Below are positions 3,042-13,117 of a stretch of 36,016 bases of DNA, piece by piece. The translations under genes and the position numbers were made by a program. Each line of letters begins with the position of its first letter. The stretch's first letter is position 1. This DNA comes from Thermoflexales bacterium. GTDB lineage: Bacteria; Chloroflexota; Anaerolineae; Fen-1058. The notes under the pieces are model-generated. The model was given only the letters and a program-made list of their open reading frames with translations, did not search any database and had not been told where the DNA came from. The stretch lies in assembly GCA_017882055.1 (NCBI GenBank), contig JADGQE010000001.1:1-36016 (forward strand), in the 5' to 3' direction.

Positions 3042-3075
3042 AACCGCAGGCGCATGGCCTGCGGTTTTTATTTTT
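3042..3075 (+). terminator. Rho-independent terminator
   Basis: Stem AACCGCAGG (3042-3050) / CCTGCGGTT (3058-3066), followed by TTTTTATTTTT. Confidence 0.75.
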
Positions 3076-3088
3076 GTGGAGTTCGAAC

Positions 3089-4717
3089 ATGATTGCCGTA
3101 AACCTGACCCATCTCAAACTCGATTTGTTTGCCCGCCCGATCTTAACGGACATCGATTGGGAGATCCATGACGATCGCTGCGTCGGCCTGATTGGCCCCA
3201 ACGGCGCAGGCAAATCGTCACTGCTGAAATTGATCGCTGCCGAACTGGTTCCCGATGGTGGATCGATCACGCGCGCCAGGGGCCTGACGATCGGCTTTCT
3301 GCAGCAAGAACCCGTGCTTGATCCGGAACAGACCGCGCTTGACGAAGTCCTCACCGCTCATGCCGAATTACATTCCGTTGAAGCCGAATTGCAGCGGATC
3401 GAAGCCAAGCTTAGCGACCCGGATGTCTACGGCGACGAAAAAACGTTGGCGCGTGCGCTCGATACGCAACATCATTTGCTGGAGAAGTTCGAGGAACTCG
3501 GCGGCGCGACCTACGAGAAACACGTGCGCGAAACGCTGCGCGGACTCGGCCTCGACGAGCATGATTTTGAAACGAAGGTCGCCGCGTTGAGCGGCGGACA
3601 AAAGAAACTGGTGGGCCTGGCAAAGTTATTGATCACTCAGCCCGATCTGCTGCTGCTCGACGAGCCGGACAATCACCTCGATCTCAACGGCAAAGCGTTT
3701 CTCGAACGGACGATCAACAACTATCACGGCGCGGTCGTCATCGTGTCGCACGATCGTTATCTGCTCGATCGCGTCGTCGACGAAATCGCCGACCTGGAAG
3801 CGGGCCGTGTCGCCGTGTATCCAGGCACCTATTCTGAGTATGCTTTTGAAAAGCAAATGCGTCTCGCTCGCGCCCAACAGCTGTACCACGTCCAACAGCG
3901 CGAAATCAATCGCTTGCAGGCAGCGGCCAAGCAGCTATTGATTTGGGGTCGCACTTACGACAACAATAAGTTCATTCGGCGCGGCAAAGCGATTCTGGGT
4001 CGCATTGAAAAAATGGATAAGATCGACCGGCCTGTGATCGAGCCGAAGCGCATGGGCTTGCAGATCAACGGCTGGCGCGGCAGTAACAAGGTGCTGGAGA
4101 CTAAGAATCTAGGCAAATCATTTACGGATGAGGCGCTCTTCAACAATCTTGATCTGCTCATCCGTCACGGCGAGCGCGTCGGCCTGGTCGGGCCGAACGG
4201 CGCCGGCAAATCAGTCTTGCTCAAAGTGGTGCTGGGCGAGATCGAGCCGGATCACGGCGAGATCATGATCGGGCCGAGCGTCGCCGTGGGTTACTACGCT
4301 CAACAACATGAAACGCTCGATCGATCGCAGACGTTGATCGACGTGATTCGCCATGCCAAAGAATGCGGCGAAGGCGAAGCCGTTGCATTCTTGATCAAGT
4401 TCTTGTTCAGTTATACGCAGACGCGACAGCACGTGGGCGAGCTATCCGGCGGCGAACGCAGCCGCCTGCAACTTGCGCTGTTAATGCTAAGCGCTGCCAA
4501 TTTTCTACTACTCGACGAGCCGACCAACAACCTCGACATCGCTTCAGCCGAGGTGCTGGAACAAGCCCTGGATGATTTTGAAGGCACGGTGTTATGCGTC
4601 TCGCACGATCGCTATTTTCTCGATCGCATCGCCACACGCATCGTCGAACTCGATCGCGGCCAATGGATGGAGTATACGGGCGGGTATTCGGATTACGCTG
4701 AGAAGAAAAGCCGTTGA
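3089..4717 (+). CDS. ABC-F family ATPase (two ABC domains, no TM domain)
   Basis: ATG at 3089 with GGAG 8 nt upstream. Two Walker A motifs (GPNGAGKS twice), two signatures (LSGGQ, LSGGE) and two Walker B motifs (LLLLDEP). A helical interdomain linker is typical of ABC-F translation factors. Confidence 0.9.
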   Translation: MIAVNLTHLKLDLFARPILTDIDWEIHDDRCVGLIGPNGAGKSSLLKLIAAELVPDGGSITRARGLTIGFLQQEPVLDPEQTALDEVLTAHAELHSVEAELQRIEAKLSDPDVYGDEKTLARALDTQHHLLEKFEELGGATYEKHVRETLRGLGLDEHDFETKVAALSGGQKKLVGLAKLLITQPDLLLLDEPDNHLDLNGKAFLERTINNYHGAVVIVSHDRYLLDRVVDEIADLEAGRVAVYPGTYSEYAFEKQMRLARAQQLYHVQQREINRLQAAAKQLLIWGRTYDNNKFIRRGKAILGRIEKMDKIDRPVIEPKRMGLQINGWRGSNKVLETKNLGKSFTDEALFNNLDLLIRHGERVGLVGPNGAGKSVLLKVVLGEIEPDHGEIMIGPSVAVGYYAQQHETLDRSQTLIDVIRHAKECGEGEAVAFLIKFLFSYTQTRQHVGELSGGERSRLQLALLMLSAANFLLLDEPTNNLDIASAEVLEQALDDFEGTVLCVSHDRYFLDRIATRIVELDRGQWMEYTGGYSDYAEKKSR

Positions 4718-6831: not shown

Positions 6832-7416
6832 TCATTCCGTGGCAAACAATTCGGCGACCGATACGCTAAATCCCGGCAGCACATCATCGCCGGGTAGCAT
6901 GTCGTGCTCGGTAAAACGTTTCACGTCTGTAACAGAGCGATAGACATAGACTTGCCGTGTACGTGGATCGGCTACCCAGACCGCTTTCACGCCGATGGCG
7001 AAATATTCGTCCAGCTTGTCCATCAAGTTGCCCCACGTGTCATCGGGTGACATGACCTCGACGACTAACTCCGGAGCGACGTCAAGGTAACTGAGCGACT
7101 TCACCTGCGCCATACGCTCACGCGAAACATACGCCACATCGGCCGCCCGTACGGTATCCGGGTTGCGATGAGTGTAGATACCCACTTCGCCGCCAAACAC
7201 TCGGCCTAGTTTGCGTTCGCGCACAAAGGACTTCAACACCAACGAAAAGTTGCTTTCAATATCTCCGTGTGGGTACCCGGTGGGCGACATGTAAACGATC
7301 TCTCCTTTGACAAGCTCGGTGCGGCCAATATCACCAATCTTATTAAGTTCTTCGCCGGTGAGAGGCGTCGCTTTCTCGCGAGTGACGGGGGAAGTTGTTA
7401 GCGTCTGCACAGCCAT
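6832..7416 (-). CDS. Uma2 family (DUF820) restriction-endonuclease-fold protein
   Basis: Typical Uma2 pattern: ELV.GEIV.MSP, HG..., PD.AYV and [15 protein letters not shown] lies 8 nt upstream of the ATG. Confidence 0.85.
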
Positions 7417-7444: not shown

Positions 7445-9679
7445 CTACGCCATCATGCCTGATCCGGCAATGGCTCCTGCATCATCGTCGTGATAATGAA
7501 TGGGCGCAGGCTGTAACAGCAAATCGCGTCGATCGCCCCAACGATGCAGGAAGCGATAGAAATTGCGCTTGCTCTTGCGATCACGCTCGTCGGGCGGCGT
7601 GTTGTTCCAGATGCGATGCTCGTGCTGAATCGTCGCCGCTTTCAATTCTGGAATCACGATCACGCGCTGCCCCAAATCCGAAAAGCGCAGGCTGAAATCC
7701 AGATCGAGATGGCGATAGAAGCGGTACTTTTCATCGAGTAACTTGACCCGCCGGAGATCCGCGCGCCGAAAGGCCATGAGATAAGCCTCGACCGCGTCCA
7801 CATCAGGACCAGGCGCTGATTCGAAGTTGCGCAGATCGCCCGAGCGCACGCCCCAGCCGCCGCACACGCCGACTTCAGGATCAGCCAACGCTGTGGCAAT
7901 CGGCGTGAAAATGTCGCCGGCCACTTCGACGTTGTTGCCCAGCATGATCACAATTCGACCTTGACTACGCAGCAAGCCCGCATTGCGCCCGGCCGCTTCA
8001 CCCACCCAGTGATCGATCCATAACGGGTGGACTTCAGAATGCGCCTTGGCCAATCGCTCGACGATCTCCGCCGTGCCGTCGCTGGAACCGTTATCGATCA
8101 ACACAATCTCAAGCGAGCGATCGCCCCTGTGCCTCAGTACGCCCTCAACACCGCGCTCGATCTCATCGGCATTGTCCCAGGCTAGCAAATTGACCGAGAA
8201 CTCAAAACGATCGGACTGGTCCAATAACGACTTCACTTCCGAAATCTTGGTCACCACATTCGGGCGCGTTATCGGATCGAGCGTGCCGCGATAACGCGTG
8301 TGCCCATTGTCACGACTATCTAATACTCTGAAGCCTTCAGACTCAATCGAGGCACGCAGTCGATCGCTGTCTGCATACTGCCGCTGCTTACGCAAGTCGC
8401 CATGTTGAACGACCTGCACCGCAATCGGCCGGGGCAAATCTCGATGCGGCGCCAACCACTCGCGCAAGCCAAGCCCCAACACTTCGTCGAACTCAAATAC
8501 CAACTGAAGCTTGCTCGCCGCAACCAGATCGGACTTCAGCATCGCCCACATCGCAGCCAGTGCCATCGGCAGATTCGCATCATCGGCGAGTGCCTCGTCA
8601 AACGCCTGGCGATGTTCGGCCTCAGCGAATTGATCGCGTGCGCTATCCGCTTGCACGCGATCGAGTTCGATCGCCCACTCACGCAATCGTCCCAAAGCAC
8701 GCTGTGCACCGCGCAAGGCATCAAATGTGAAATTGAGTCGCGTTCGATAGTGCGTCGTGGCATACAAGTAACGCAGTGACAACGGATCGAAGCCGCGCGC
8801 CATCAAATCGACCAGGCGATAATCGTTACGCGTGGACTTCGCCATCTTCAAGCCATCGACCAACAGATGTTGGCCGTGAATCCAATAGTTGACGAAGGGC
8901 CTGCCCGTCGCGCCTTCACTCTGCGCGATCTCGTCCTCGTGGTGCGGAAAGATCAGATCGACGCCGCCCGTGTGAATATCGATCTGTTCGCCAAGGTGCT
9001 TGAATGACATCGCGCTGCATTCGATATGCCAGCCGGGAAAGCCGTCGCCCCACGGGCTGGGCCACTTCATCACGCGGCCCGGCTCAGCCGCTTTCCACAG
9101 CGCAAAATCTTCGGTGGCCAGCTTATCCGTAGCGATGTCGCCACGCACCCCGCCGAGCAAGCCGGTCAATTCGTTGCGCGACAGACGGCCATAGTTTGGG
9201 AATGCGGATACGTCGTAATAGATCGTGCCATCGACTTCGTAGGCCAGCCCTTTCGCCAACAACCGCCGGGTAATGTCAATCATCTCGGGGACATGATCGG
9301 TCGCACGCGGAAAGACGTGCGCGGGCAAAATATTGACTTTGGCTTCGTCCTCCATAAAAGCCTGCGTATAAAACGCTGCGATTTCCAGCGGCTGCTTGCC
9401 TTCTTTGCGCGCTGCCGCAATCATCTTGTCCTCGCCGCGATCGAGCATCTCCTGCCGCATGTGACCGACATCGGTGATATTCTTGACATGCCGCACTTCG
9501 TAGCCGAAATGCACCAGCGTCCGCCGCAGCCAGTCGGCCAGCATGAACGAGCGCAAATTACCGATGTGAATGAAGCGATAGACCGTCGGCCCGCAAGTGT
9601 ACAGTCGCACTTTGCCCGGCTCGATCGGACGAAAGACGTCTTTAGTGCGCGTGAGTGTGTTATAGAGACGCAGTTCCAT
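7445..9679 (-). CDS. cysS: Cysteine--tRNA ligase fused to a C-terminal GT2-type glycosyltransferase domain
   Basis: ATG at 9679 (MELRLYNTLTR). CysRS motifs are CGPTVY..HIGN, WHIECS, KMAKS, the anticodon-domain DDANLP and a C-terminal helical tail. About 250 further residues carry VLIDNGSSDGT and other GT-A-like features. The GT2 part spans roughly 7445-8215. Confidence 0.9.
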   Translation of the reverse strand: MELRLYNTLTRTKDVFRPIEPGKVRLYTCGPTVYRFIHIGNLRSFMLADWLRRTLVHFGYEVRHVKNITDVGHMRQEMLDRGEDKMIAAARKEGKQPLEIAAFYTQAFMEDEAKVNILPAHVFPRATDHVPEMIDITRRLLAKGLAYEVDGTIYYDVSAFPNYGRLSRNELTGLLGGVRGDIATDKLATEDFALWKAAEPGRVMKWPSPWGDGFPGWHIECSAMSFKHLGEQIDIHTGGVDLIFPHHEDEIAQSEGATGRPFVNYWIHGQHLLVDGLKMAKSTRNDYRLVDLMARGFDPLSLRYLYATTHYRTRLNFTFDALRGAQRALGRLREWAIELDRVQADSARDQFAEAEHRQAFDEALADDANLPMALAAMWAMLKSDLVAASKLQLVFEFDEVLGLGLREWLAPHRDLPRPIAVQVVQHGDLRKQRQYADSDRLRASIESEGFRVLDSRDNGHTRYRGTLDPITRPNVVTKISEVKSLLDQSDRFEFSVNLLAWDNADEIERGVEGVLRHRGDRSLEIVLIDNGSSDGTAEIVERLAKAHSEVHPLWIDHWVGEAAGRNAGLLRSQGRIVIMLGNNVEVAGDIFTPIATALADPEVGVCGGWGVRSGDLRNFESAPGPDVDAVEAYLMAFRRADLRRVKLLDEKYRFYRHLDLDFSLRFSDLGQRVIVIPELKAATIQHEHRIWNNTPPDERDRKSKRNFYRFLHRWGDRRDLLLQPAPIHYHDDDAGAIAGSGMMA

Positions 9680-9721: not shown

Positions 9722-9763
9722 AATAAAAACGCGGAGCACATGCTCCGCGCTTGATTGTAACAT
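9722..9763 (-). terminator. Rho-independent terminator with a conserved 18-nt 5' flank
   Basis: Minus strand reads ATGTTACAATCAAGCGCG, then stem CGCGGAGCA / TGCTCCGCG (9730-9749), then TTTTTATT. The 18-mer at 9746-9763 is identical to the one at 11670-11687. Confidence 0.7.
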
Positions 9764-9775
9764 GTTCCGTCCAGT

Positions 9776-10255
9776 TCATCTATTTTTCAGTTCCCGCAGA
9801 GACCGCACGGGCGAACGATAACCGGCCTCGACCATCTCCGTTAACAACTGATCGGCTAGCGCCAGATCAAGATATTCCTCGTCCACTGACGCCTGCAAAA
9901 TACCCAACGTGCCGGAAATCGGAATCACCATGAGTTGAGCCAGCCGCCGCGCATCACGGTCATCCGTCAGAAACATCCAATTGCGCGCCGAAGCGACGGC
10001 CAGACAGGCGGCTTCTCCCGCATCGACAGTCCGGCGCAGGCGGGCAGCCAAAGCGCGCTCTCCACTTGTTAATTGTACTTGTCTTAACCAGGACCACTGG
10101 CCTTCCGGAATGCGGTGCAGTCGCTCACCCGCTTTGAGTTCGGTCAGCACTTCGCCGGGAGCAACCACTTCAGGGTCAAACAGGCGTCGCAACAAATCAG
10201 AACGCCGTACATTGGCCAGGTTGCTTAAAACGGTGTTATTGACGATGGCGCGCAT
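9776..10255 (-). CDS. DUF3368-type PIN-like protein (putative toxin)
   Basis: ATG at 10255 (MRAIVNNTVLSNL). It has the PIN-like acidic pattern (..D.GEA..L.. and LTDD..AR). It pairs with an upstream UPF0175 gene, which is the usual arrangement. Confidence 0.7.
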   Translation of the reverse strand: MRAIVNNTVLSNLANVRRSDLLRRLFDPEVVAPGEVLTELKAGERLHRIPEGQWSWLRQVQLTSGERALAARLRRTVDAGEAACLAVASARNWMFLTDDRDARRLAQLMVIPISGTLGILQASVDEEYLDLALADQLLTEMVEAGYRSPVRSLRELKNR

Positions 10256-10586
10256 GCGGCTTTTTATCCTGTGTCTTCTTGATCGTCCGCCATTGACGAA
10301 GCGCGTCAACTTCAGCTTTGGCCTCCTCGCGCGTCGCTGCGCCCACCCGAATGGGGATGCCTAACCCGGCAAAACGCTCTTGTAATTCAAGCCGATGCAT
10401 CCCTAATAGTTCTGCGGCTTTGCCCAAGTTGATCACTTCGTCCAAATACGCACTGACCACGAGCGACCATTGCAACGCGCTATCCTCGCGCAGCGTTTTC
10501 TCAAGCGCAGATTGCACGAGGTCGGGTTGTCGTTGATGCAGTTTGACCAGTTCGGTCAAAGCCCAGTCATAAGATTGAACGGCCAT
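10236..10586 (-). CDS. UPF0175 family antitoxin-like protein
   Basis: Has the characteristic LG.AAELLG....L segment. A strong GAGGAGG Shine-Dalgarno sequence precedes the ATG. The gene overlaps the downstream PIN-like gene by 20 nt. Confidence 0.7.
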   Translation of the reverse strand: MAVQSYDWALTELVKLHQRQPDLVQSALEKTLREDSALQWSLVVSAYLDEVINLGKAAELLGMHRLELQERFAGLGIPIRVGAATREEAKAEVDALRQWRTIKKTQDKKPHARHRQ

Positions 10587-10607
10587 TTACGCCTCCTCAT
10601 TAGCGGT

Positions 10608-10649
10608 GGATGAATCAGTACCGTAATTATAACGCAAAGCGATTCATCC
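10608..10649 (-). promoter_or_regulatory. Probable autoregulated promoter/operator of the UPF0175/DUF3368 pair
   Basis: A perfect 9-bp inverted repeat, GGATGAATC (10608-10616) / GATTCATCC (10641-10649), brackets a minus-strand TATAAT (10626-10631). The -35 box is weak. Confidence 0.5.
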
Positions 10650-11588
10650 TAACACCGCCTCAATTTGCTCCACCACGCTCTTTTGTGCCGTCCCGTCTCC
10701 TGGCTCGCGCTCACGTGCGATACGCTCCGCTTCCAAGAGCGGGATGCCTTCGGGAATGGGTGAAATCGTGTCCGGGCGCGGCGTGCCGATGTCGTTGACG
10801 CCCGTCTTCCACCAATCGCGCAACGCGATCAACATCTGCCGTCCTTCTTCGCCGCATTCCAAACAGTACGGAATGATAGGTCGCAGGGGCGACCCTTGTG
10901 GTCGCCCGCTCAACACCTCGTCTAGCAAGAAGCGATTGTAGCGCAAGGCATAGACCATTGCCTGCTTGAAATAGTCGAGCGCGGTGAGACCTTCGAGGTT
11001 TCGCGCCAGCGCCTCGAAGGTCTGGGCTTGCGTCAGCCGCAGCGACGCGAAATGATCGTTGTATTCGTACTGCTGTGCCAGTTGCTCCGCCTCCGCGAGC
11101 AGTGACGGGATGGCGGCATAATCCCCCTGTGCGTGCTTGACGCGGACGAGACCAGTGAACGCACCGCCTGCCGCCTCTGCTGTTTTCGATGTGGCTTTGC
11201 CCGCAATGTCCGCCATTCGACCGCGCGCGTCTTTTGCCTTTTTCGACTGCTCATCCACCTTCGCCTGAATCGCGCAGTAATGCTCGAGCGTTTTGCCGAA
11301 TGACAGGAACGCGACGCCGTCTGCTTTCAAATCCTCCGTCCAACGCGCAAGAATGTCGAAGGCAGATTTCGCCTCATCGCCCGACGCGAGCGCGACGGGG
11401 ACATTCACGCTTTTGCAGTGCAAGCGAAACATTCGCAAGAGTGACGACTTACCCACTCCGCCAACGCCGTGAATGACGAGCAATCTTCTATCAAGTGTTG
11501 GTGTAGCGACAGAATTCTTGAACGCGTCGCGCAAGCGTACAACATCGGTGAAATAGGCGAGCAGGTCTTCGTCAAATGTGGAGGGCAT
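10644..11588 (-). CDS. P-loop NTPase resembling a shortened STAND/NB-ARC-type ATPase with a helical-repeat C-terminus
   Basis: ATG at 11588 (MPSTFDEDLL). The 85-codon upstream extension in the ORF track overlaps lpdA and is rejected. Walker A is GVGGVGKSSLL. I could not find a clear Walker B. Confidence 0.7.
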   Translation of the reverse strand: MPSTFDEDLLAYFTDVVRLRDAFKNSVATPTLDRRLLVIHGVGGVGKSSLLRMFRLHCKSVNVPVALASGDEAKSAFDILARWTEDLKADGVAFLSFGKTLEHYCAIQAKVDEQSKKAKDARGRMADIAGKATSKTAEAAGGAFTGLVRVKHAQGDYAAIPSLLAEAEQLAQQYEYNDHFASLRLTQAQTFEALARNLEGLTALDYFKQAMVYALRYNRFLLDEVLSGRPQGSPLRPIIPYCLECGEEGRQMLIALRDWWKTGVNDIGTPRPDTISPIPEGIPLLEAERIAREREPGDGTAQKSVVEQIEAVLG

Positions 11589-11644
11589 ATTCTTCCTCGA
11601 GTATCTTACGGAAAATCTTGCAGGCCACCGAGACTTGCAAGAGA

Positions 11645-11687
11645 AGACAAAAGCGCGAGGCAGGTGCCTCGCGCTTGATTGTAACAT
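11645..11687 (-). terminator. Rho-independent terminator with the same 18-nt 5' flank
   Basis: Minus strand reads ATGTTACAATCAAGCGCG, then a GAGGCA..TGCCTCGCGCTT stem, then TTTGTCTT. It lies after the lpdA stop. Confidence 0.65.
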
Positions 11688-11713
11688 AGAACCGATCCAC
11701 GAATGCATGCGCA

Positions 11714-13117
11714 TTATTGGTGAATCGACTGTCCCTCCACTGCCTCTGCGGCCTCCATCATGGCTTCGCCGAGAGTCGGATGGGCATGCACCGATCGAGC
11801 CACTTCGTGCGGCGTGAGTTCGTAATTGCGCGCCAGCACCCATTCGGGCAGCAGTTCGGTGACTTCAGGGCCGATCATGTGTACGCCCAGGATTTCACCG
11901 TACTTCGCATCGGCGATGACTTTGACAAAGCCATAAGCTTCGCCCAGGCCAAGGGCTTTGCCGTTCGGCTGGAAGTTGAACTTGCCGACCTTAATTTCGT
12001 GGCCCTTCTCTTTCGCCTGCTTCTCGGTCAAACCCATCGACGCGATCTGCGGCTGGCAGTAGTAGCAGCGCGGCATTGCGTCGTAATCCAACTCGACCGT
12101 TTCCGCGCCTGCGATCGTTTCCGCCGCGACGATGCCCTGCGCCGATCCGACGTGCGCCAGCATCAGTTTCGCATTCACATCGCCGATGGCATAAATATTC
12201 GGCACGTTCGTATGGAAGTGATTGTCGACGACGATCGCGCCGCGTTCGACTTTGACGCCGGCCTTTTCCAGTCCGATGTTTTCGCTGTTCGGCGCAAACC
12301 CGATCGCGATCAATGCCTTATCGGCCTTGATCGTTTGGCCGCCCGCCTTGACTTCGACGCCGCCTTCGACTTGAGTCAGTGACTCAACTTTCGTATTGGT
12401 CAACACCTGAATGCCCTGCTTCTTGAGGTGCCTGGCCAGTTCGGCGCTGACTTCCTCGTCTTCGAGCGGCACGACATTCGGCAGCATCTCGATAATCGTC
12501 ACGTCCGATCCGTACGCTCGAAACACGTAGCCGAACTCTACGCCGATCGGCCCGGCGCCGATGATCACGATCGATTTCGGCGGCTGCGTGATCTCCAGCG
12601 CGTGGCGATAGGTGATGATGGCTTCGCCGTCGATTGTCACACCCGGAATGCTGCGGGCGCGCGCACCGGTGGCGATGATAATATTCTTTGATTCGATCAC
12701 GCCATCAAACTTTTGGCCGTTGACGGCGGGCGCATCGGGTGCCGAAGCGATCTCGATATGTGTCGCGTCTTTGAGTTTGCCTGTGCCCTGATACACCTCG
12801 ATCTTGTTCTTCTTCATCAAGAACTGCACGCCCTTGACGAGTCGATCGGACACCTGGCGGCTGCGTTTATGCGCGACCGAGTAGTCGAGCTGGAGGTTCT
12901 CGAACGTGAAGCCGAACTCTTTGCCGCGCGTCAACAAGTTGGCCAGCTCGGCATTGCGCAGCAGCGCCTTCGACGGAATGCAGCCCCAGTTCAGGCACAC
13001 CCCGCCGAGATGTTCTTTCTCGACAAGCGCCGTTTTCAGCCCCAACTGCGCGGCGCGAATCGCGGCGACGTAGCCGCCCGGCCCGCCGCCAATTATCGTT
13101 ACATCGTAAGTCGTCAT
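11714..13117 (-). CDS. lpdA: Dihydrolipoyl dehydrogenase (E3)
   Basis: Has GGGPGGY, the redox-active GGVCLNWGCIPSK disulfide motif, a second Rossmann fold (GAGPIGVE) and the C-terminal HAHPT..E motif. Confidence 0.95.
   Translation of the reverse strand: MTTYDVTIIGGGPGGYVAAIRAAQLGLKTALVEKEHLGGVCLNWGCIPSKALLRNAELANLLTRGKEFGFTFENLQLDYSVAHKRSRQVSDRLVKGVQFLMKKNKIEVYQGTGKLKDATHIEIASAPDAPAVNGQKFDGVIESKNIIIATGARARSIPGVTIDGEAIITYRHALEITQPPKSIVIIGAGPIGVEFGYVFRAYGSDVTIIEMLPNVVPLEDEEVSAELARHLKKQGIQVLTNTKVESLTQVEGGVEVKAGGQTIKADKALIAIGFAPNSENIGLEKAGVKVERGAIVVDNHFHTNVPNIYAIGDVNAKLMLAHVGSAQGIVAAETIAGAETVELDYDAMPRCYYCQPQIASMGLTEKQAKEKGHEIKVGKFNFQPNGKALGLGEAYGFVKVIADAKYGEILGVHMIGPEVTELLPEWVLARNYELTPHEVARSVHAHPTLGEAMMEAAEAVEGQSIHQ

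Follow-up and report, generated by a model that had tools for sequence, protein, structure and literature searches.

An accessory cysteinyl-tRNA synthetase with a GT-A glycosyltransferase-fold domain behind its anticodon-binding end in Chloroflexota

The gene described in this work lies on a stretch of 36,016 nucleotides from a Thermoflexales bacterium under Chloroflexota (contig JADGQE010000001.1 of assembly GCA_017882055.1), and this whole stretch is referred to as the window. The gene encodes a protein (CysRS-GT) that joins a complete cysteinyl-tRNA synthetase (CysRS) to a C-terminal glycosyltransferase (GT) domain of the GT-A fold. CysRS-GT is an aminoacyl-tRNA synthetase (aaRS) paralog with an accreted domain. 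The reading that we favour, and to which we give about an even chance, is that CysRS-GT is an accessory CysRS whose GT-A domain sits behind the anticodon end and acts on, or is governed by, the bound tRNA-Cys. The N-terminal 460 residues would bind and charge tRNA-Cys in the ordinary manner, and the GT-A domain would be placed next to the anticodon end of the bound tRNA. The GT-A domain would perform, or be switched by, something that depends on tRNA-Cys binding, with nucleotide-sugar-dependent transfer as its default chemistry. The protein would not be a tRNA-independent cysteine-sugar ligase of the MshC type.

The gene is a single unbroken open reading frame (ORF) of 744 codons and a stop codon, according to the ORF listing and its translation (Table 1), as the original prediction had claimed from the sequence. 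The prediction had also recognised a complete CysRS by its CGPTVY, HIGN, WHIECS, KMAKS, and DDANLP motifs. All of these motifs are present, and residues 1-463 form a complete CysRS with the anticodon-binding domain included. The NCBIfam cysS equivalog model TIGR00435 is matched with 413 bits (cut-off 340) and is covered at positions 1-462 of 466. The four Zn ligands C29, C221, H246, and E250, together with H38, G40, and W217, are invariant in the fused CysRS (19/19), in the canonical CysRS of Chloroflexota (16/16), and in the CysRS of other phyla (17/17). The KMAKS residues K278, M279, and S282 are invariant in the 19 fused bodies and near-invariant in the canonical and other-phyla sets.

The signature of the anticodon-binding domain consists of R426, R430, D439, R442, G449, and D454, positions that we take to correspond to the residues reading G34, C35, and A36 in the E. 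coli enzyme of 1U0B. This signature is fully conserved in 33 unfused CysRS, apart from a few R430K replacements and one G449N, and the fused proteins come close to this level. The window protein has His at position 426 where other CysRS have Arg, and it retains the other five residues. Judged from these residues, the CysRS body looks catalytically competent, and the caveat of the original prediction that the retained anticodon-binding regions argue for a real tRNA ligase is probably right. The window protein shares with the canonical CysS (TIGR00435; 1U0B) the full domain set, the HIGN and KMAKS motifs, the four Zn ligands, and the anticodon signature, and it is 35-39% identical to solved CysRS with template modelling (TM) scores of 0.79-0.88. 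It differs from the canonical CysS in its added C-terminal residues and in being a second copy. The window protein also carries the NITDxGH insertion of the CysRS subtype represented by 6UJD and 3SP1, a signature that is found in unfused CysRS of many phyla.

The C-terminal part beyond the CysRS comprises about 280 residues and consists of a linker, a GT-A domain, and a tail. The domain was expected to be of the GT-A/GT2 type from the VLIDNGSSDGT sequence, and this was borne out by the profile searches, which matched Pfam PF00535 (Glycos_transf_2) at residues 502-624 with 53.6 bits (cut-off 23.3) besides tRNA-synt_1e at residues 16-325. The GT-A residues D529 (97%), E585 (97%), D589 (92%), D628 (97%), H686 (98%), and H688 (97%) are conserved among 127 sequences of the fused form. 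The nucleotide-binding Asp D529, which follows the second beta-strand of the GT-A domain within VLIDNGS, is present in the window protein.

The full-length AlphaFold model was built with a 40-sequence alignment and has a mean predicted local distance difference test score (pLDDT) of 86.1 and a predicted TM score (pTM) of 0.80. The top match of this model in the PDB is the 461-residue CysRS chain of the E. coli CysRS:tRNA-Cys complex (1u0b_B; E 1e-38, TM 0.84). The separate model of residues 400-744 has a pLDDT of 88.2 and a pTM of 0.77, and its Foldseek matches are GT-A enzymes at E ~1e-12, namely a Leptospira glycosyltransferase, the WrtF fucosyltransferase, and ppGalNAc-T2. The CysRS and GT-A parts are predicted to be packed compactly because the pTM covers all 744 residues and the linker has a pLDDT of 74-85. 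The GT2/GT27 GT-A enzymes (PF00535; ppGalNAc-T2, WrtF, PcManGT) share with the window domain the GT-A fold, the Asp of DNGS, and the downstream His (H686), which resembles that of DXH-type enzymes. However, the window domain is only 14-21% identical to its top GT-A fold matches, its DXD-equivalent differs, and in the relatives examined this GT-A domain is always preceded by a CysRS anticodon-binding domain. The profile and structure searches gave no close relative that has been characterised.

The architecture of tRNA-synt_1e followed by Glycos_transf_2 was identified in more than 100 protein clusters of 51-93% identity within a search space of 5.8 billion proteins. The source labels of these clusters are Thermoflexales, Anaerolineae, Dehalococcoidia, Roseiflexaceae, and Chloroflexota, and the fused proteins, where they are named, are named only "cysteine--tRNA ligase". 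In a scan of one genome per species, full-length matches were found only in Chloroflexota (Anaerolineae, Chloroflexia, and Dehalococcoidia) and Dormibacterota, with one extra match in a metagenome-assembled genome (MAG) labelled only "bacterium" (L040). Unfused CysRS that bear the NITDVGHM signature, at 41-53% identity, are widespread outside these phyla, for example in Patescibacteria, Actinomycetota, Clostridia, Planctomycetes, Bacteroidota, and DPANN archaea.

The window genome is a MAG of 3.76 Mb that is 92% complete and consists of 495 contigs. Such a fragmented source could suggest that adjacent cysS and GT2 genes were wrongly joined by assembly or sequencing, and one relative from the window's own family (L136, on contig C18 of G210) has its reading frame interrupted within the GT domain at about residues 657-670. 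In this relative, the GT domain has become a pseudogene or the assembly is in error. However, the same unbroken architecture recurs across the clusters above, in complete genomes, on long contigs, and in many assembled genomes, and the junction sequence is conserved among homologues. A frameshift or chimera is therefore excluded, and an artefact has a negligible chance of explaining the fusion.

The phylogeny of the CysRS bodies was examined with a maximum-likelihood tree of 59 sequences. The 19 fused bodies form one clade with a Shimodaira-Hasegawa-like approximate likelihood ratio test (SH-aLRT) support of 99, and the branches of this clade are no longer than those of canonical CysRS. The fused CysRS have a single origin and normal evolutionary rates. 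A second, stand-alone cysS, whose presence the original prediction had left to be checked, was found in the window genome on contig C294, where it follows a PIN-TRAM gene and encodes a canonical protein of 481 residues (505 bits).

The gene copies were surveyed in 201 genomes of the phylum, nearly all of which are at least 90% complete. A relative of the GT domain is present in 52 of the 201 genomes, and in about 25 of these it is fused to cysS. The fused gene is an accessory copy and is never the sole cysS in the sampled genomes, because the roughly 25 fusion carriers all hold two to three cysS-like genes. Five fusion genomes were inspected closely (G000, G085, G127, G014, and G094), and each proved to have a full-length cysS apart from the fusion. 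The genomes studied at this level combine a canonical cysS with the fusion, and a truncated copy of about 400 residues is often present as well. In the window's own family (G201-G212), the fusion is present in 5 of 12 genomes, all five carriers also have the canonical type, and the remaining genomes carry a third, unfused CysRS type. The three types are patchily distributed across this family, and some genomes have only the unfused second type. The unfused second-type CysRS were considered as orthologues of the fusion and rejected, as their identity to the fused body is only 42-45%. G009 was likewise considered as a genome without a full-length cysS and rejected, since one of its "truncated" matches is its canonical enzyme.

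GT-domain relatives without a cysS fusion are proteins of 310-430 residues from eight genomes in five families. All eight begin with the Pfam domain CysS_C, the anticodon-binding domain of CysRS, and the GT-A domain follows directly. Cultured examples come from the Ktedonobacteria Dictyobacter, Ktedonospora, and Ktedonosporobacter, and these are annotated as "hypothetical protein" or "glycosyltransferase family 2 protein"; they include KDW_02030 of Dictyobacter vulcani and WP_220194942 of Ktedonospora formicarum. The free-standing module stands beside only a canonical cysS in three genomes (G171, G080, and G039), and some genomes hold both the fused and the free-standing forms. Free-standing proteins occupy at least two places in the module tree, and one group is nested among the fused proteins (SH-aLRT 96). 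They retain the residues of the CysS_C signature at 90-98%, with about 97% for the set R430, D439, R442, G449, and D454. From these sequences, the conserved evolutionary unit is an anticodon reader followed by a GT-A domain, with or without the cysteine-activating body, since every free-standing GT relative begins with CysS_C. This self-contained module can exist on its own as a protein of about 320 residues. The constant partner of the GT domain in evolution is the anticodon-binding domain and not the cysteine-activating body.

At a ninth locus (L018), CysS_C directly precedes GT2 within a long ORF of 778 residues. The apparent protein with an unrecognised N-terminus before CysS_C and GT is probably an ORF-calling artefact, as the opposite strand carries a rhomboid-family ORF that belongs to the same cluster as the Pfam-confirmed rhomboid gene of L022. 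A profile search with the module retrieved 1330 clusters at E<=1e-30, a number that includes fragments and generic multi-GT proteins. The library cluster counts of the free-standing form are inflated because some of the short "representatives" are fragments of fused proteins from contigs of about 1 kb; the genome-derived cases are unaffected.

The original prediction had proposed a cysteine-glycoconjugate or low-molecular-weight-thiol enzyme by analogy with MshC and MshA. In such an enzyme, the GT domain would make an amino sugar and the CysRS body would join cysteine to it, which would yield a cysteine-sugar conjugate or low-molecular-weight thiol. The logic is that of mycothiol, where MshC is a CysRS paralog, and MshC is described as tRNA-independent (PMC2922099). 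MshC (TIGR03447; 3C8Z) has a homologous cysteine-activating Rossmann body and shows that a CysRS paralog can be tied to sugar chemistry, and MshC structures are among the structural matches of the full-length model. However, the window protein scores only 211 bits against the MshC cut-off of 485 and retains the full anticodon domain. Its alignment with MshC covers only residues 2-380, both for the model (411 positions) and for the solved chains (413-414 residues), and stops short of that domain. The CysS_C-GT module also persists without a cysteine-activating body, and neither a deacetylase or acetyltransferase partner nor any other conserved operon partner was found at the loci examined. Many of the same genomes carry distinct MshC-like paralogs, which group in a clade apart, and the window genome has none. 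An MshC-like cysteine-sugar ligase is disfavoured because the conserved unit is the anticodon reader with the GT-A domain, and we regard this proposal as unsupported and very improbable.

The MshC-like truncated CysRS paralogs are proteins of 400-420 residues without the anticodon domain that occur in many Chloroflexota, often alongside the fusion (L022:2303-3559 (+) and L023:2074-3333 (+), and also in G085, G127, G014, G111, and G007). They match TIGR03447 end to end with 374-382 bits, which is below the cut-off. Their presence may hint at a cysteine-ligase or thiol pathway beyond Actinobacteria. In genome family f15, a 419-residue CysRS without the anticodon domain lies 6 kb upstream of a free-standing CysS_C-GT gene. 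The idea that this CysRS is the missing half of a split gene was rejected, as it is without the NITDxGH insertion, is MshC-like end to end, and falls in the separate clade. Elsewhere, the truncated CysRS and CysS_C-GT genes are megabases apart, which further rules out a split gene.

Several findings weigh against a role of the GT-A domain that depends on tRNA-Cys. The window genome has one ordinary tRNA-Cys (GCA) only, with no second or unusual tRNA-Cys found in it. Searches of the window, the canonical cysS locus, and five related loci found neither a T-box nor a riboswitch. The GT domain is acidic, with an isoelectric point (pI) of 5-6; no basic surface was found on it, and a large RNA-binding surface is not suggested. 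The DXD-equivalent is D-[TS]-S-x-E in most fused lineages, and the window clade (the 43 nearest clusters, with the source label Thermoflexales where named) is without the first Asp, with G-N-H-x-E in 37 of the 43 clusters and G-N-N-x-E in the other 6. Of the 9 free-standing forms taken from genomes, 6 have lost the nucleotide-binding Asp, as have about half of the free-standing representatives. The CysS_C residues could also be kept for fold stability and not for RNA contact.

The remodelled DXD-equivalent and the loss of the nucleotide-binding Asp also favour a different explanation, doubtful but a real contender, in which the GT-A domain is no longer a transferase and is instead a ligand-, metal-, or protein-binding appendage that modulates CysRS activity or the availability of tRNA-Cys. 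Such an appendage may sense a nucleotide-sugar, or bind metal jointly with a His-rich tail, and many fused members have such tails. In the free-standing forms, conservation of the CysS_C signature exceeds that of the GT motifs, which is in line with the same explanation. Against it, the typical GT-A polar residues are 92-98% conserved in the fused proteins and DNGSSD is intact in the window protein. G-N-H is also conserved within its clade, and its His, two residues past the lost Asp, is positioned as in DXH-type GT-A enzymes such as ppGalNAc-T. The window protein itself has Asn at this position (G581-N582-N583) and shows neither a canonical DXD nor a DXH, with E585 and D589 kept. The G-N-H/G-N-N variant is kept within its clade, and the GT-A domain is therefore under selection.

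The acidic surface of the GT domain also bears on an unlikely explanation in which the module is an active glycosyltransferase on a non-tRNA acceptor (a protein, a small molecule, or a lipid-linked sugar) and the anticodon domain is a leftover scaffold or docking piece. The best fold matches, ppGalNAc-T2 and WrtF, are protein or oligosaccharide glycosyltransferases, and a Peptidase_S51 gene adjoins the fused gene in 7 of 33 loci, both of which would suit such an acceptor. However, a leftover of 50 residues is not expected to hold the CysRS signature at the level seen in several families, nor to outlive at least two independent changes of architecture. A conserved glycan or cell-wall gene context was also not found at the loci examined.

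The favoured reading of a GT-A domain that acts on, or is governed by, bound tRNA-Cys has a more specific form, in which the CysS_C-GT-A module is a tRNA-Cys-directed glycosyltransferase. The borrowed CysRS domain would direct the module to the GCA anticodon, and the module would transfer a sugar onto tRNA-Cys or onto the cysteinyl group of Cys-tRNA-Cys, and this transfer would be coupled to charging when the module is fused. tRNA-Cys is identified chiefly by its GCA anticodon and by U73 (PMC9976931). We consider this specific form quite unlikely because of the erosion of the GT motifs and the acidic surface.

The coordinates of the features are shown in Table 1. The start codon was assigned to position 9679 because the upstream in-frame ATG at 9763, which would add 28 residues, precedes the terminator-like hairpin and T-run that trail the preceding PIN-like gene, and because every homologue aligned begins with M(E)LRLYNT. 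The longer protein is unlikely in view of these sequence features. The leader between the terminator-like element and the start codon is only about 40 nucleotides.

Table 1. Features of the CysRS-GT gene and its leader in the window, with residue numbers of the window protein.
Feature	Residues	Position in window	Strand	Basis
Whole CysRS-GT-A fusion gene		7445..9679	-	Stop codon 7445-7447; start 9679 matches all homologues
CysRS catalytic (Rossmann/connective peptide, CP) domain	16-325	8705..9634	-	Pfam PF01406 tRNA-synt_1e, 329 bits
HIGN	38-41	9557-9568	-	Sequence motif
KMAKS	278-282	8834-8848	-	Sequence motif
Zn ligand	C29	9593-9595	-	Conserved residue
Zn ligand	C221	9017-9019	-	Conserved residue
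Zn ligand	H246	8942-8944	-	Conserved residue
Zn ligand	E250	8930-8932	-	Conserved residue
Helical stem-contact/helical-bundle region, with DDANLP	326-415	8435..8704	-	TIGR00435 alignment; model helices 319-412
CysRS anticodon-binding domain (CysS_C type)	416-463	8291..8434	-	Signature residues; superposition of model on 1u0b_B
Linker from anticodon domain to GT-A domain	464-490	8210..8290	-	pLDDT 74-85; length differs among homologues
GT-A (GT2-like) domain	491-720	7520..8209	-	PF00535 match; Foldseek GT-A fold
Nucleotide-binding DNGSSD		8078-8095	-	Intact in window protein
DXD-equivalent GNNVEVAGD		7913-7939	-	Motif statistics
HEH motif of GT-A domain		7616-7624	-	Motif statistics
Low-confidence C-terminal tail (IHYHDDD...)	721-744	7448..7519	-	pLDDT <50 for 729-744
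Terminator-like hairpin and T-run behind PIN-like gene, TGTTACAAT before		9722..9763	-	Sequence reading

The tails of the fused proteins differ. Many fused members end in long His-rich tails similar to HxHxHQHWPDHxHxHPH (L008-L013, L016, L017, and L020), and the tail of the window protein has only IHYHDDD. The His-rich tails may signal metal binding, and CysRS is a Zn enzyme.

The fused gene of the window lies between lpdA, which encodes the E3 component of a 2-oxoacid dehydrogenase cluster, and lipA, and the same arrangement is found in a Thermoflexales relative. The window has additional genes at this locus, which are a UPF0175/PIN-like pair and an AAA-type (AAA_16) gene upstream and a Uma2 nuclease gene downstream. 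The syntenic Thermoflexales locus L006 lacks these mobile-looking flanks (9776-11843 and 6832-7416 in the window) and carries a P450 gene in their place. No partner gene that is conserved across lineages was found at the fused loci examined. The Peptidase_S51 gene (cyanophycinase/PepE-like) occurs in two subclades, Dormibacterota included, and is located downstream on the same strand in five loci (L009, L012, L016, L035, and L054) and upstream on the opposite strand in two (L042 and L043). In four loci (L010 at 8519-9079, L011, L020, and L031), the fused gene is directly preceded on its own strand by a YqeY-like gene, which is homologous to the tRNA-binding tail of GatB, and a gene for a LON substrate-binding domain lies downstream. 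At least three of these four loci come from genome family f27 (Ktedonobacteria-like).

A rhomboid-family protease gene adjoins the free-standing CysS_C-GT gene in five loci (L018, L021, L022, L023, and L026) from two genome families, with differing orientations; the rhomboid and TPR domains were confirmed by Pfam for L022 only. A gene for an ABC-F type ATPase lies at 3074-4717 (+) of the window, 2.7 kb from the fused gene, and ABC-F genes also lie near the fusion in L007 and L008. ABC-F was rejected as a conserved neighbour and is probably a coincidence, as no more than 3-4 of 33 loci have such a gene nearby and these genes share only about 35% identity. In the window genome, ARAGORN also reported a tRNA-Ser with anticodon ACT and a tRNA-Sec on contig C484.

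We know of no description of a sugar-modified tRNA nucleoside from bacteria. An aaRS paralog that modifies a tRNA rather than charging it has a precedent in GluQRS (YadB), a GluRS paralog that modifies tRNA-Asp. A glycosyltransferase that works on the anticodon loop also has a precedent, as the animal enzymes QTGAL (B3GNTL1) and QTMAN (GTDC1) act on an anticodon-loop nucleoside of tRNA (PMC11755703), which is queuosine in tRNA-Tyr and tRNA-Asp. Glycosyltransferases of this kind are known from animals only. Queuosine is carried by the tRNAs for His, Asn, Tyr, and Asp, and tRNA-Cys (GCA) does not belong to this group. Sugar-modified tRNA nucleosides are placed in vertebrates (PMC10690763). No description of a CysRS-GT fusion or of a free-standing CysS_C-GT module was found in the literature.

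The domains appended to aminoacyl-tRNA synthetases usually mark added functions. The appendage described here has an enzyme fold, is conserved across two phylum-level lineages, and is kept with the anticodon-reading piece alone in cultured Ktedonobacteria. The current names "cysteine--tRNA ligase" and "glycosyltransferase family 2 protein" hide the link between the fused and the free-standing forms. If the GT domain is inert or unrelated to tRNA, the family would be a well-documented but ordinary case of aaRS duplication with domain accretion. A module acting on or through tRNA-Cys would bring to light a novel type of tRNA-linked chemistry or regulation in bacteria and would provide a small, portable, anticodon-specific targeting domain. 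If the glycosylation of tRNA-Cys is true, this would be, as far as we know, the first case of a glycosylated tRNA species and of an anticodon-addressed glycosyltransferase reported from bacteria.

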